Origin: a phage
Sequence record: PZ379176.1
Length of the DNA: 64,000 nt
Reading direction: 5' to 3' (one strand)
A program made the position numbers and the translations under genes. The notes beneath the pieces are model-generated. The model did not search any database, had not been told where the DNA came from, and saw only the letters and a program-made list of their open reading frames with translations. Positions 4,471 through 63,661 of the stretch are shown here, one piece after another (the stretch's first letter is position 1; the number at the start of each line of letters is the position of its first letter).

Positions 4471-4479
4471 TAATGTATA
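4471..4479 (+). promoter_or_regulatory. TAATGTATA motif (candidate phage-specific promoter element)
   Basis: Exact 9-mer also found upstream of genes at 36225, 42593 and on the minus strand at 52425-52433. Confidence 0.35.
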
Positions 4480-8332: not shown

Positions 8333-8413
8333 TAGGAATATAGCCCCCTCTTTTAGTACTATGACGCTCTTTCTGTAGCGTCGTGCCCTCTCCCCATTTG
8401 AAGCTTCTGCATA

Positions 8414-8435
8414 GCCGCCTTTGGGCGGCTTTTTG
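8414..8435 (+). terminator. rho-independent terminator
   Basis: GCCGCC-TTTG-GGCGGC then TTTTT. Confidence 0.6.
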
Positions 8436-8442
8436 CGTTACC

Positions 8443-8466
8443 GCCTCCTTAATTGGAGGCTTTTTT
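8443..8466 (+). terminator. rho-independent terminator (second of tandem pair)
   Basis: GCCTCC-ttaatt-GGAGGC then TTTTTT. Confidence 0.6.
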
Positions 8467-8492: not shown

Positions 8493-9305
8493 ATGAAAGC
8501 ATTTGCATTGTCAGCTATTCTAGTTTTATCTGCCATTAGTGCCCCATCCTTTGCTCATTCTGACAAATGCTCACACTCTAAACAGTGTGAAGTCCAGCAG
8601 GGGCCGAAAGGTGATAAAGGAGAACAGGGTATTCAAGGCGAACAAGGTCCGAAAGGTGACAAGGGTGATCGCGGAGAGCAGGGCTTAAAAGGTGATACTG
8701 GATCGGCTGGCATCAATGGTAAAGATGGCATCAATGGTAAAGATGGCATTGATGGTAAAGATGGCATTGATGGTAAAGATGGCATCAATGGTAAAGATGG
8801 CATCAATGGTAAAGATGGCATTGATGGTAAAGATGGCATTGATGGTAAAGATGGCGCTCAAGGTGAAAAAGGTGATTCTGGTGCAGATGGTAAGAAAGGC
8901 GAAACTGGCCTAACTGGTGCAGCAGGTTTGAATGGCGTTGACGGATTAAATGGCAAAAATGGTAAAGATGCAGATATGTCTGCCGTTAATGCTAACGCCA
9001 AATCTATCAAAGCTCTGGAACAATCCACCAACAAACGTTTTGCTTCTTTGCAAAAACAAGTAGACCGTAACCGTGATCATGCCTCTGCTGGTATTTCTGG
9101 CGTGGCTGCAATGGCTAACATCCCGCAAGTAAGTCAAGGATCTGCTTTCTCTGTTGGTGCTGGGGTAGGTGCTTACGATGGTGAATCTGCTCTTGCTATT
9201 GGTGTTAGTGCTCGTTTCAATGAAAACGTAGTAACTAAAGCATCAGTGGCAATGACTTCAGAGAGTGACGCTGTTCTGGGCGCTGGTGTAAGTTACGAGT
9301 GGTAA
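8493..9305 (+). CDS. secreted collagen-like repeat protein with YadA-like C-terminal anchor
   Basis: Signal-like N-terminus MKAFALSAILVLSAISAPSFA; long Gly-X-Y tract (GPKGDKGEQG...GINGKDGIDGKDG...); C-terminus ends GAGVSYEW, resembling trimeric-autotransporter anchors. Confidence 0.7.
   Translation: MKAFALSAILVLSAISAPSFAHSDKCSHSKQCEVQQGPKGDKGEQGIQGEQGPKGDKGDRGEQGLKGDTGSAGINGKDGINGKDGIDGKDGIDGKDGINGKDGINGKDGIDGKDGIDGKDGAQGEKGDSGADGKKGETGLTGAAGLNGVDGLNGKNGKDADMSAVNANAKSIKALEQSTNKRFASLQKQVDRNRDHASAGISGVAAMANIPQVSQGSAFSVGAGVGAYDGESALAIGVSARFNENVVTKASVAMTSESDAVLGAGVSYEW
8709..8852 (+). repeat. eight tandem 18-nt repeats (GGCAT[C/T][A/G]ATGGTAAAGAT) inside the collagen-like gene
   Basis: Direct reading: units alternate ATCAAT and ATTGAT in pairs, encoding GINGKD/GIDGKD. 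Confidence 0.9.
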
Positions 9306-9311
9306 GATAGT

Positions 9312-9338
9312 GCCTCTCCCGAAAGGGAGGGGTGTTTC
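9312..9338 (+). terminator. rho-independent terminator
   Basis: CCTCTCCC-gaaa-GGGAGGGG then TGTTTCT. Confidence 0.55.
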
Positions 9339-9415
9339 TATAAGCATCTTTTCGAGGGTGTTTATTGAAACAACAAAACAGGAGGTAGCAAGTTCTGATA
9401 ACAACGGCACAGCTA

Positions 9416-9805
9416 ATGTTGACATTGACTATTTATTATGAGGCAGGGAATCAGCCAACCGCATGTAAGGCTTTAGTTGCGGATACCGTGATAAATAGAA
9501 TGGCCCAACGAAAACTGACCGCTGAACAGGTGATAAGACAAAAGAACCAGTTTGAGTGGATTCCGGTACTATTAAAACAGGAGAAACCTTATAAACGTTA
9601 TGTAAAGCTGATTCGTGATAAAAATCCGATGACTAAGCAAGCCATTGGAGAAAGCGAGCGACTTGCTAAACGTGCCCTTAAGAAGAATTATGTTCCGCTG
9701 TACAGTGGGACTTACTTTCAGAGTAAGAGCGAAGGGGTGCCAAAATGGTATGCCAATCCTATGTATTGTGGTGATTTAGTGTTCGATAATAGCTCTAGGG
9801 AATAA
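9416..9805 (+). CDS. SleB/CwlJ-like cell-wall hydrolase domain protein
   Basis: Motif IYYEAGNQ...ACKALVADTVINRM...QFEW, as in the SleB-type hydrolase family; start uncertain. Confidence 0.5.
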   Translation: MLTLTIYYEAGNQPTACKALVADTVINRMAQRKLTAEQVIRQKNQFEWIPVLLKQEKPYKRYVKLIRDKNPMTKQAIGESERLAKRALKKNYVPLYSGTYFQSKSEGVPKWYANPMYCGDLVFDNSSRE

Positions 9806-10005
9806 TCACTAGTGCCAGATTTGACAAACTAAATTCCTTTATAAACCAACCACTTAGTAAATTTATTGAAAAAGATGGCAGTATTCTGGGACTATGGGTA
9901 ATGCTCTGTATATAGACCCTTTGAAAATTTCTTAGAAAATAAGTTTACTAAATATAACTTACTTAAATAATATTACTTTTAATCTCTGATAAAAGGGTAA
10001 ATAAT

Positions 10006-10302
10006 ATGACTTTAGAAGTATATAAATTCCTTTTTGTAAGCTGTTTAACTATCAGCGTTCTAGGATTTATTATTCTCAGAAACAAAGCAGCAAGCTGGGA
10101 GAGAATGTATAAATCCCTAGTTCGAGTGGATGAGATGTATAATGAGAAAGTTAAAGTAACACTTAACGATCTTATTATGCAAGTAGAGGACAGAAACAAG
10201 CGTCTTCAGAACCTCAACCACGAAGTGTTACGCCTTGCTCGTGCTAATGAAGACTTGCGAGTGGCTATTGCTAAACAGCAGGAGATTAACAATGAAGCAT
10301 GA
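10006..10302 (+). CDS. membrane-anchored coiled-coil protein
   Basis: N-terminal TM helix then heptad-like region. Confidence 0.5.
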   Translation: MTLEVYKFLFVSCLTISVLGFIILRNKAASWERMYKSLVRVDEMYNEKVKVTLNDLIMQVEDRNKRLQNLNHEVLRLARANEDLRVAIAKQQEINNEA

Positions 10303-10549
10303 TATTAATACAGCCCCTGTAGTCAAGCAACTGAAAGACCTGAAGGTGGGGAGTGTTTTTGAAACTGTTCCACCTAAAAATAAAATATATCTTACAGTAA
10401 AGCTAGATTCCTCAACCGTTTATTCAGCTAGTTGGAAGCCTGACGAAAGAGTAGTAGTAGATCTCACTTCGGATAGAATAACAATGTTGAGAAAAGATAC
10501 TGTTGTTCAGGTAGTTGATAATGCTCGACTTACCAATAAGGTGGATTAA
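10292..10549 (+). CDS. small paralog-family protein (member 1)
   Basis: About 80 aa; shared pattern L-x-x-L-K-x-G-[DS]-V-F with 11 other ORFs. Confidence 0.5.
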   Translation: MKHDINTAPVVKQLKDLKVGSVFETVPPKNKIYLTVKLDSSTVYSASWKPDERVVVDLTSDRITMLRKDTVVQVVDNARLTNKVD

Positions 10550-10551
10550 AG

Positions 10552-10788
10552 ATGAAAGTTAATATTAAATCCGATCGTACAATGCTTCGCTTAAATAACA
10601 TGAAGCCGGGCGTTCTATTTGAGCGTAAAGACTCTCTTTATATTAGAACCGACACACTATACGCAGATAACTATGTGAACTGTGTTGATGTGGTAACTGG
10701 AAAGCTCATGCCTTTTAAACGGGATGAAGTCTGCCAAGTACGTAGTGATCTTCACATAACCAACATAGAGGCTAAAGATGAAGATTGA
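10552..10788 (+). CDS. small paralog-family protein (member 2)
   Basis: Same family pattern; tightly packed. Confidence 0.5.
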   Translation: MKVNIKSDRTMLRLNNMKPGVLFERKDSLYIRTDTLYADNYVNCVDVVTGKLMPFKRDEVCQVRSDLHITNIEAKDED

Positions 10789-11029
10789 TCTTGAGATGAA
10801 AGCTAAAGAATTGTGTGTGGGTGATTTGAAACTTGGTGATGTATTCCAAGTTAAGGCAACATGTATTGATTATTACATGATCGTTCAGTTATATACACCA
10901 CATGTGTCAGAGACTGATCTTCGGAATGGTTGTGTAGTGCTCAGTTTAAGCACCAATCAAGTAATGAAGCTAGATTCAAACTTACCTGTTTCAGTTATCC
11001 ATGATGCAGTAATTACCAATCGGAAGTGA
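10778..11029 (+). CDS. small paralog-family protein (member 3)
   Basis: LKLGDVFQVK motif. Confidence 0.5.
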   Translation: MKIDLEMKAKELCVGDLKLGDVFQVKATCIDYYMIVQLYTPHVSETDLRNGCVVLSLSTNQVMKLDSNLPVSVIHDAVITNRK

Positions 11030-11244
11030 ATATGAACATTGAAAAGAAGGTTGTTGACGAGGCTGTTCAGTTACGATCTCTTGAAACACATGATGTATTT
11101 GTGTGGGGAGGCAGTCTGTTTCAGAAATCTGCTTATGCTGTAGAGGGCGGGGTTCGTTGTTTTAATATCTTCAACAATGAGATGCAAATCCTTCCTAACT
11201 TCGCTCATGTTAATAAACTTATCCACCTTTCTATATATCAATAA
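11026..11244 (+). CDS. small paralog-family protein (member 4)
   Basis: LETHDVFVWGG motif; ATGA overlap. Confidence 0.5.
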   Translation: MNMNIEKKVVDEAVQLRSLETHDVFVWGGSLFQKSAYAVEGGVRCFNIFNNEMQILPNFAHVNKLIHLSIYQ

Positions 11245-11254
11245 GGGCAATTAG

Positions 11255-11473
11255 ATGGAAATTAAAGTAGTTGATTATCCTAAATATGCAAATGCAGAGG
11301 ACGTTAAAGGTGGTGATGTTTTCTCTTATGATAAACGTTTCTGGCTGATGCTAGAAGATAAAACCCCTGATGGTTTGTGTAAGGCTGCTAACTTGAGCAG
11401 TGGTTCTGTTGAAGTCTTCGGTCTATCAACCACTGTTATGCCACGACCTGATCTGTGTTTATCCCAAAAGTAA
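11255..11473 (+). CDS. small paralog-family protein (member 5)
   Basis: VKGGDVFSYDKRFWL motif. Confidence 0.5.
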   Translation: MEIKVVDYPKYANAEDVKGGDVFSYDKRFWLMLEDKTPDGLCKAANLSSGSVEVFGLSTTVMPRPDLCLSQK

Positions 11474-56175: not shown

Positions 56176-56958
56176 TTACTTTACACCAATGCTAGCCAAA
56201 CGTCTGAGCACTGCTTGTGTTTGTGGACTGTACTGAGAACCTGCTGCATGTGGTGCACTTGCCCTCTGAACTGTTTGAGAAGTCGGAGGTTTACCAGCAA
56301 GCATAGCAGCTACACCTAATACTGCATTACCAAAGTTCTGTTGAGGCTTCTGATCTTCCCCTTCCTGCACTTCATCAGAGTAAAACTCTACTGGATTTCC
56401 TCCTAAAGCACCTGTCTTAGAAGCAGTAATGTCTGCCTGAGTTGGAGCTTGTGCGGCTTTCTCTCTATCTAACAAGTCAGGACTAAACTGATTGACTGGT
56501 TGAACAGCTTGCAAAGCTCCAACAGGGTTAGCAATCTGAGAAGCTGCATCACCATAGAAAGGAAGAAAGTGTTTATTGTTCATGGAGTCAAGAGCTTGTG
56601 GAGTAAATCCCTTTTTACCAGCGAACATTTGCTTAGCACCACCGATACCTTCTGAGTAACCAACCATTGCTTTCTTAACATCACCATTAAAAGCCTTTAA
56701 GTTATCTCGAATATAACGAGCACCCATATCAATATTCTTTGCTGGGTCAAGTCTGTCTTCTAGTTTGTAGCCGTAGTCTTTAGCCAACCCTTTACTGATC
56801 TGCATTAAACCTACAGGACCAGTTCCAGAAGCCACTGTAGGACGACCACTAGACTCCCTTTGGATTACAGCATGAATCAAAGCAGCAGGAATCCCATACT
56901 TCTTTGAAGCCTGTTGAACCATTGGGTCTAGTTCTTCAATACCCATCTTAATTGCCAT
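56176..56958 (-). CDS. soluble lytic transglycosylase (SLT) domain protein
   Basis: IHAVIQRESSGRP...GLMQISKGLAKDYGY matches the SLT catalytic-Glu region. Confidence 0.7.
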   Translation of the reverse strand: MAIKMGIEELDPMVQQASKKYGIPAALIHAVIQRESSGRPTVASGTGPVGLMQISKGLAKDYGYKLEDRLDPAKNIDMGARYIRDNLKAFNGDVKKAMVGYSEGIGGAKQMFAGKKGFTPQALDSMNNKHFLPFYGDAASQIANPVGALQAVQPVNQFSPDLLDREKAAQAPTQADITASKTGALGGNPVEFYSDEVQEGEDQKPQQNFGNAVLGVAAMLAGKPPTSQTVQRASAPHAAGSQYSPQTQAVLRRLASIGVK

Positions 56959-62857: not shown

Positions 62858-63349
62858 TTAATATTTACCTTCGGTATAAAGATTAGCTTCTGCAACTCTT
62901 CTGTTATGAAGACCCTGACTTCTCTGCTTCTCTCCCTTGACCGTTATTTTATCCCAACGAAGAAATTCGGAATAAACATCCCCCTTAACATCTCCATTGA
63001 TTACTTTCCTTAACTTAGATGTGCTCAAAGCACCACTGCCAACGTTGAAGTTGAAAGAAGTGAGTGCATCAAACTCATGAACTAGCAAAGGAACCTTTAT
63101 GTTCTTCTGAGTAGCACGAACAGAGTCTTGTGTGTCTCTATCTAGCAGAGCTAGACAATCCTCTATAGAATACGTTAATCCTTGTCTAACCGGATAACCA
63201 TTCATATCACGCGTAGCCCCTACACATATAGTCCAGATACCTGCGGAATCTTTATAAGCCTTGGTTCTCATACCCTCATGCTTCATGATGAATTCCATTC
63301 CAGCTGGGCTTAAGTTTAGTTGTACAGGTGGCAATGCGGCGTTATCCAT
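62858..63349 (-). CDS. GH24 (T4-lysozyme-like) lysozyme
   Basis: E-x8-D-x5-T triad in HEGMRTKAYKDSAGIWTICVG; no signal sequence. Confidence 0.75.
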   Translation of the reverse strand: MDNAALPPVQLNLSPAGMEFIMKHEGMRTKAYKDSAGIWTICVGATRDMNGYPVRQGLTYSIEDCLALLDRDTQDSVRATQKNIKVPLLVHEFDALTSFNFNVGSGALSTSKLRKVINGDVKGDVYSEFLRWDKITVKGEKQRSQGLHNRRVAEANLYTEGKY

Positions 63350-63378: not shown

Positions 63379-63597
63379 TTAAGGTAGTATCTTTCTCAGA
63401 GCGTTAGATTCAGCATCAGGACAAATAACAACTAGATTATTTTGAATGGTTCGCTGCTTACATTGAGAACTAAGTTTCTCTACTGGAGCAGGTGCTGTAA
63501 CTAATGGATGAACTGCGCTTACAGGGATTGCAGTAGATACCACGACTCCTGCACCTAAACAAACTAAACCATATACAGCTTGTTTCATCATTTTCAT
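63379..63597 (-). CDS. small membrane-anchored or secreted protein (72 aa), possibly lysis-associated
   Basis: Single N-terminal hydrophobic segment; immediately upstream of lysozyme. Confidence 0.4.
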   Translation of the reverse strand: MKMMKQAVYGLVCLGAGVVVSTAIPVSAVHPLVTAPAPVEKLSSQCKQRTIQNNLVVICPDAESNALRKILP

Positions 63598-63661
63598 TTG
63601 AGTGTCTCCTATAAATTAACCTCTTGGGATATATTAGTTTCATTACCTATTCACTAGTTTA

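Follow-up and report, generated by a model that had tools for sequence, protein, structure and literature searches.

A conserved early-region gene of phiEco32-like phages encodes a SleB/CwlJ-type protein that may act as an accessory endolysin

Among known systems, the spore-cortex lytic enzymes SleB and CwlJ of Bacillus (PF07486; SleB structures 4f55 and 4fet) come closest to the phage protein analysed here, gp117, which shares with them the catalytic-domain fold, the placement of the catalytic glutamate where helix alpha-1 ends and the NR and QF(S/E)W motifs. CwlJ consists of a single domain, like gp117, whereas SleB carries a signal peptide and an N-terminal peptidoglycan-binding domain, both of which are absent from the phage protein. 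Moreover, gp117 differs from both in a helical insertion of about 30 residues, in reading EAGNQ for EARGE and GDLVF for the C-terminal GxHxFY, and in belonging to a phage rather than to a germination context, with a host murein that is devoid of muramic delta-lactam. SleB itself requires this lactam, which E. coli murein does not contain. In terms of mechanism, SleB is a lytic transglycosylase that depends on one essential catalytic glutamate (PMC12331253, PMC11148199). The same combination of a SleB-like fold and one essential glutamate damages E. coli murein in the case of the type VI secretion (T6SS) effector T6EC3, which is lethal to E. coli when present in the periplasm and ceases to be so upon an E-to-Q change (PMC11148199). 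T6EC3, unlike gp117, is secreted and has a cognate immunity protein, and the two are likened on the basis of fold and glutamate, not of sequence.

Within the phages, the nearest comparison is offered by the Grimontviridae podophages of the elongated-head (C3) type (7-11, GAP52, Privateer and SE131), whose homologues are 31-36% identical to gp117 and annotated as endolysin. Those of Privateer (gp098), GAP52 (gp023) and 7-11 are single-domain proteins of 140-141 aa with, as in gp117, a hydrophobic helix alpha-1 at the very start, and their genes, like that of gp117, are on the leftward non-structural arm with the COOH.NH2-ligase cluster downstream of them. They represent the only annotated endolysin of their phages and keep the GxHxF motif, whereas the Kuravirus protein exists alongside a holin-GH24 cassette and its gene has a degenerate start codon. 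The Privateer paper describes the homologue as the only endolysin of the phage and states that a holin could not be identified; the SU10 paper reports that the holin and lysozyme genes of the kuraviruses are absent from 7-11 and GAP52. The immediate neighbours of the Grimontviridae homologues also lack a transmembrane segment that would mark a holin. Two genes downstream of the SleB-type endolysin, GAP52 encodes a 182-aa predicted lipoprotein (gp025, L006 5621-6169; MRKIAIIGACIGSMFLLGC...), which could be a lysis-related outer-membrane component. A combination of a PF00959 lysozyme and a separate PF07486 'lytic protein' is likewise found in the E. coli phages iGC_PHA_EC001 and LNA4 (Phapecoctavirus). 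These are unrelated myoviruses, however, and their PF07486 proteins are unlike gp117 in having about 190 aa and an N-terminal extension of some 70 residues.

The DNA analysed (the window, 64,000 nucleotides, record PZ379176.1) was described in an earlier note as that of a 'Gram-negative-style phage'. Megablast and tblastn searches specify this further: the window comes from an E. coli phage of the phiEco32-like Kuravirus group (Gordonclarkvirinae) and is reversed with respect to the phiEco32 record. The reading frame that the note had placed at the locus is exact, running over 129 codons from ATG to TAA, and corresponds to gene 117 (Table 1). It does not form part of the structural module, but lies in the early region, surrounded by host-takeover genes; the right-end genes of phiEco32 and SU10 are described as early class in the literature. 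The product has a mass of about 15 kDa and a calculated pI of 9.7, and is free-standing, without fusion or adaptor. It is 100% identical across many records, where it is mostly labelled 'hypothetical protein' and once 'cell wall hydrolase'.

Table 1. Coordinates in the window of gene 117, its surroundings and the other genes discussed
Feature	Position	Strand	Description
gp119 adhesin gene	8493..9305	+	signal peptide, collagen G-X-Y repeats, YadA-like membrane anchor
Intrinsic-terminator-like hairpin	9313..9340	+	CCTCTCCC-GAAA-GGGAGGGG followed by T-rich tail; between adhesin gene and gene 117
Shine-Dalgarno AGGAGG	9380..9385	+	9 nt before CTG 9395, 30 nt before ATG 9416
Full conserved frame of gene 117	9395..9805	+	in-frame CTG start, 136 codons plus stop
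Gene 117 ORF (phi32_117 in phiEco32)	9416..9805	+	ATG..TAA, 129 aa plus stop; single Hydrolase_2 (SleB/CwlJ-type) domain
Putative catalytic Glu codon GAG	9440..9442	+	E9 in the 129-aa form, E16 in the 136-aa form
Sigma-70-like promoter of gp116	9944..9971	+	3' limit of the gene 117 unit
gp116	10006..10302	+	98 aa; N-terminal transmembrane helix (about 3-27), coiled-coil-like tail; no Pfam match
SLT-domain transglycosylase	56176..56958	-	among the ejection-protein genes
Canonical endolysin	62858..63349	-	PF00959 phage lysozyme (GH24), T4-type
Holin	63379..63597	-	late lysis cassette; by position and homology to Bas90_0010; no Pfam match

The translation contains the motifs IYYEAGNQ, ALVADTVINRM and QFEW, from which the earlier note had proposed a SleB/CwlJ-like enzyme. 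This proposal is borne out by a Pfam match, by a profile match to known structures and by the predicted fold. The HMM search that had been put forward as a check gave a match of residues 13-114 to PF07486 (Hydrolase_2) of 32.2 bits (E 1.7e-7), above the gathering cut-off of 27 bits, and no other Pfam domain was matched; a search of NCBIfam returned nothing meaningful. In the PHROGs collection the protein matches phrog_12974, a family without assigned function, over its full length (E 1.7e-89) and, weakly, an endolysin family. Searches of the PDB with the single sequence or with a narrow profile of eight sequences did not retrieve SleB, whereas a family profile built from 42 sequences did so clearly (4f55, E 5e-19; 4fet, E 2e-18). 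The family is small, as only 122 relatives at E < 1e-3 were recovered when 1.84 billion representatives were scanned exhaustively with HMMER. Most of these are single-domain proteins of 120-150 aa that open directly with a hydrophobic helix and continue with Y-x-E-[AS]-[RG], and the cluster of the GAP52 type is among the six closest clusters.

Only two residues, E16 and R35 (numbering of the 136-aa form, see below), are invariant in the alignment of 42 sequences, while at least 90% conservation is seen for N34, V46, Q52, F53 and A91. The invariant E16 aligns with the glutamate of the YGESRGE motif of SleB in 4f55 and 4fet. The EAGNQ variant of the EARGE motif recurs elsewhere in the family. 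The C-terminal motif has become CGDLVF in the Kuravirus clade, with the histidine replaced by leucine, whereas most other members keep it. The AlphaFold2 model of gp117 (pLDDT 91.9, pTM 0.88) retrieved SleB (4f55 and 4fet) as its sole matches in the PDB with Foldseek, at probability 1.0, TM-scores of 0.58-0.64 and 16-17% identity. The TM-score stays at about 0.6 because of the helical insertion, which comprises some 30 residues at approximately residues 55-94. Among the predicted viral structures of BFVD, the matches of the model were phage entries named 'cell wall hydrolase SleB' or 'endolysin', with the identical protein of SU10 on top. The profile evidence places gp117 in the SleB/CwlJ family with its putative catalytic glutamate retained, and the predicted fold is of the SleB catalytic-domain type. 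By analogy, gp117 would be a lytic transglycosylase of this family that is muralytic on E. coli murein.

The start of the gene deserves separate attention. Its context was considered weak in the earlier note, and indeed ATG 9416 is without a Shine-Dalgarno sequence of its own, the sole strong one being found 30 nt upstream. This AGGAGG is followed by an in-frame stop codon (TAG 9386), then by GTT CTG ATA ACA ACG GCA CAG CTA and then by the ATG. The CTG at 9395 aligns with the TTG start, located behind GGAGG, of a 136-aa product in four metagenomic relatives that are syntenic and about 70% identical. In a comparison of 23 distinct loci, comprising these four and 19 from E. coli/Shigella phages or metagenomes, the Shine-Dalgarno sequence, the CTG and the open frame were kept in all 19 of the latter; in the Suseptimavirus/4E8 clade the Shine-Dalgarno sequence reads GGGGG. 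In that same clade the position of the ATG is occupied by CTT, so that only the CTG, or a TTG one codon further on that lacks a Shine-Dalgarno sequence, is available. Within the seven codons from CTG to ATG there are four variable sites (ACA/ACG, ACG/ACA, GCA/GCC and CTA/CTG), all of them synonymous third positions; the stretch directly upstream of the Shine-Dalgarno sequence is unalignable between clades. In addition, the seven residues added by the CTG start, LITTAQL, resemble the LLT[TS][AS]AL of the relatives and make up the N-terminal half of helix alpha-1 according to the AlphaFold model, where residues 4-17 make up one helix and the first ten residues have a pLDDT of 93. These comparisons suggest that the conserved product probably has 136 rather than 129 aa, and that it would be translated from the CTG or, in the phiEco32 clade, partly from a newly gained ATG. 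Initiation at CTG is very inefficient in E. coli.

The records differ considerably in the length they assign to the product, namely 101, 110, 128, 129 or 136 aa. The BASEL records of Bas86 and Bas89 annotate the CTG start and 136 aa. In SU7, KBNP1711, UKE3, EK010 and O18-011 the homologue is annotated from an internal methionine with 101 or 110 aa, and these versions therefore lose helix alpha-1 together with the catalytic glutamate; the BFVD model of the 101-aa version superposes poorly (TM 0.28). The start of gene 117 is overlapped by phi32_118 (9310..9441, + strand, 43 aa), which was considered as a partner in translational coupling and discarded. Most of it is terminator-hairpin sequence, it is not conserved in the SU7/4E8 clade, and it is probably spurious rather than a gene.

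Gene 117 is widely kept. Homologues of at least 80% identity occur in 99 phage records, exactly the count obtained for the GH24 endolysin, which is the behaviour of a core gene. None of these 99 records has a broken frame. For 13 alleles, taken from phages of E. coli and from metagenomes, pairwise Nei-Gojobori comparison gave dN/dS values of 0.03-0.29 for every pair with dS > 0.05. As judged from these alignments, gene 117 is a core gene under purifying selection. Disrupted alleles were encountered in L105 and P0015 (frameshift) and in TH42 (loss of the stop codon); these may be sequencing errors, since they come from an UNVERIFIED record (TH42) and from metagenome assemblies.

The transcriptional context of the gene points to low expression. 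Gene 117 starts about 55 nt past the terminator-like hairpin that separates it from the adhesin gene; other clades have a stronger terminator, a hairpin plus T6, at the same place, and terminators are annotated in SU7 and 4E8. Two further terminator-like hairpins, at 8413-8460, precede the gene upstream of gene 117. The interval from the terminator to gene 117 yielded no sigma-70 promoter, and the next one, for which promoters are annotated at the equivalent position in SU7 and 4E8, belongs to gp116. Likewise, a promoter for the phage sigma factor gp36 (TAATGTATA) is absent from the + strand within 4.9 kb upstream of gene 117. Matches to TAATGTATA are no more numerous in the window than expected by chance. 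A near-perfect one is located just upstream of the holin gene (63610..63618, - strand), and a perfect one in a large early intergenic spacer, directed at the early genes (4471..4479, + strand). Given the upstream terminator, the lack of a detected promoter of its own and the change of the Shine-Dalgarno-linked start from TTG to CTG, the expression of gp117 is probably low.

As was pointed out in the earlier note, the gene is far from the lysis genes, the holin and PF00959 endolysin genes being some 53 kb away. The same phage also encodes an SLT-domain protein, likely the entry-stage murein cutter, and one of its close relatives has an annotated spanin, spanins having been described for phiEco32. 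With a holin, a GH24 endolysin and spanins already present, a role of gp117 in lysis would be redundant. A comparison with a canonical endolysin is instructive here. Judged by its sequence, gp117 is a soluble protein of a muralytic family without a secretion signal, as expected of an endolysin that depends on a holin, whereas its gene, instead of being part of a late cassette, is not adjacent to the holin, lies in the early region and has no gp36-type promoter. A leader is indeed absent. Neither a signal peptide nor a transmembrane or signal-anchor-release (SAR) segment was detected in gp117, the maximal Kyte-Doolittle mean over 19 residues being 0.61 as compared to 2.07 for a P1 Lyz sequence. 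A SAR endolysin was rejected on the same grounds, as only 15 residues precede the glutamate and AlphaFold packs the helix into the domain. Without an export segment the murein is out of reach of gp117 unaided, and a protein that stays in the cytoplasm would need the holin.

Taken together, we consider it somewhat more probable than all other possibilities combined that gp117 is a leaderless SleB-type lytic transglycosylase that serves, at a low level, as an accessory or fail-safe endolysin after the holin has acted, and that this function is probably ancestral. The protein would be made in the cytoplasm from early-region transcripts, probably in small amounts considering the changed start codon, and the opening of the inner membrane by the holin would provide its sole route to the murein; this dependence on the holin is what the lack of an export signal leads us to infer. 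There it would act beside the GH24 lysozyme as a second endolysin. If gp117 works as SleB does, the invariant glutamate that ends helix alpha-1 would protonate the glycosidic bond between MurNAc and GlcNAc, after which the C6 hydroxyl of MurNAc would close the 1,6-anhydro ring. Several points weigh against this reading, namely the two altered family motifs with the loss of a histidine, the TM-score to SleB of only about 0.6, the early position away from the holin, the redundancy with the existing lysis set, the need of SleB for muramic delta-lactam and the poor initiation at CTG. A bolder version, that the E. coli Gordonclarkvirinae deliberately keep this core enzyme, with its CTG start behind a strong Shine-Dalgarno sequence and past a terminator, at a trace dose as an ancestral endolysin, for use as a fail-safe lysin or in an unrecognised early function that has nothing to do with the late lysis cassette, appears to us rather unlikely.

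The history that goes with the accessory-endolysin reading is supported by the lineage of 7-11, GAP52 and Privateer, which has no holin-lysozyme pair and in which the homologue is the sole annotated endolysin. The SleB-type enzyme is, on this sequence comparison, probably the older, ancestral lysin of the C3 podophages. The distribution suggests that the kuraviruses later gained a holin-GH24 cassette among their late genes and did not lose the SleB-type lysin.

The earlier note had combined the family assignment and the early location far from the lysis cassette, which both stand, with a possible role in entry or early remodelling of the host, which is not supported. Other phages do have large virion proteins with a SleB-type domain, for instance Atu_ph03 (1191 aa, BFVD), yet gp117 is a free-standing protein of 15 kDa without leader, transmembrane or SAR segment, encoded in the early region outside the structural module. 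The 34 proteins detected by mass spectrometry in SU10 phage preparations, several of which are non-structural, hold no early-region product of about 15 kDa, as judged by region and size. In addition, a dedicated SLT-domain protein is already present among the ejection proteins, and the distant homologues in the related C3 podophages are annotated as endolysin. An enzyme that is virion-associated or acts on the murein at entry is thus very improbable. Even less credible is a partnership with the upstream YadA-/collagen-like autotransporter gp119, for which gp117 would open the murein during assembly of the adhesin. The two genes are adjacent and on the same strand, but they are separated by a terminator, gp117 has no export signal, and gene 117 is found in all clades whereas 4E8, SU7, Bas86/89 and the metagenomic relatives lack the adhesin.

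More consideration is required for the possibility that the SleB-like fold was kept for a role outside lysis, early in infection, with the cytoplasm or the inner membrane as its site. The protein could then have murein precursors or products of murein recycling as ligands or substrates, or have a regulatory function like that of T7 lysozyme towards T7 RNA polymerase. Such a role would fit the position among the host-takeover genes of the early region, the strong purifying selection despite a complete lysis set, the divergence of two family motifs and the very low dosage that the start codon suggests. It is less easily reconciled with the retention of the catalytic glutamate and of the whole fold, with the absence of a partner or an extra domain, and with the homologues in the sister phages being the only candidate endolysin there. 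Early synthesis of an endolysin is, moreover, common (T7 gp3.5, T4 e), which weakens the argument from position. On balance we regard a repurposed protein as unlikely, at about the level of the trace-dose proposal above. A further view, that gene 117 is a vestige of a former endolysin that became redundant upon acquisition of the holin-lysozyme cassette and is now barely expressed, could explain why every E. coli phage examined has CTG in place of the ancestral TTG start, why terminators are located directly upstream and a promoter of its own was not found, and why disrupted alleles (L105, P0015, TH42) are occasionally seen. However, the dN/dS of around 0.1, the frame that is intact in every phage record of at least 80% identity and the conserved Shine-Dalgarno sequence speak against a decaying gene, and the disrupted alleles are themselves open to the explanation by sequencing error. 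We consider a vestige improbable, clearly more so than a repurposed protein.

The SleB label as such is already public. The identical protein of SU10 is listed as 'Cell wall hydrolase SleB domain-containing protein' (UniProt A0A0B4N207), and 'cell wall hydrolase' is used in GenBank PV574017. What is mildly new is limited to the conserved CTG start linked to the Shine-Dalgarno sequence, with its consequences for annotation, and to the likely history as an ancestral endolysin. Gene 117 is an ordinary feature that carries little weight for biology at large. For annotation it is of direct use that many Kuravirus-like records lose the catalytic glutamate (the 101- and 110-aa versions) or read hypothetical, whereas the comparisons favour 136 aa. 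Those who mine phages for enzybiotics may note that kuraviruses carry a second, putative muralytic enzyme. With respect to the evolution of lysis modules in the C3 podophages, the data suggest that an older SleB-type lysin was replaced by a holin-GH24 cassette and is nevertheless still kept.

Some observations were made on the neighbouring genes. The upstream gene product gp119 is an adhesin of the trimeric-autotransporter type in the early region of a lytic phage, flanked by terminators on both sides (8413-8460 and 9313-9340) in the manner of a moron. Its repeats are encoded by a tandem array of 18 nt (8.2 copies, 8708-8855), the length of the repeat region differs from phage to phage, and the protein is labelled 'tail protein' or 'agglutinating adhesin' in the databases. 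Downstream, gp116 is called 'DNA helicase' in several records, which looks like an annotation error. It is followed by small ORFs of 72-85 aa (10292-10549, 10552-10788, 10778-11029, 11026-11244 and 11255-11473, within 10235..11473 on the + strand) that share a similar pattern, with '...G(D/S)VF...' towards the N-terminus and '...N' towards the C-terminus, which suggests a tandemly duplicated family of early genes.
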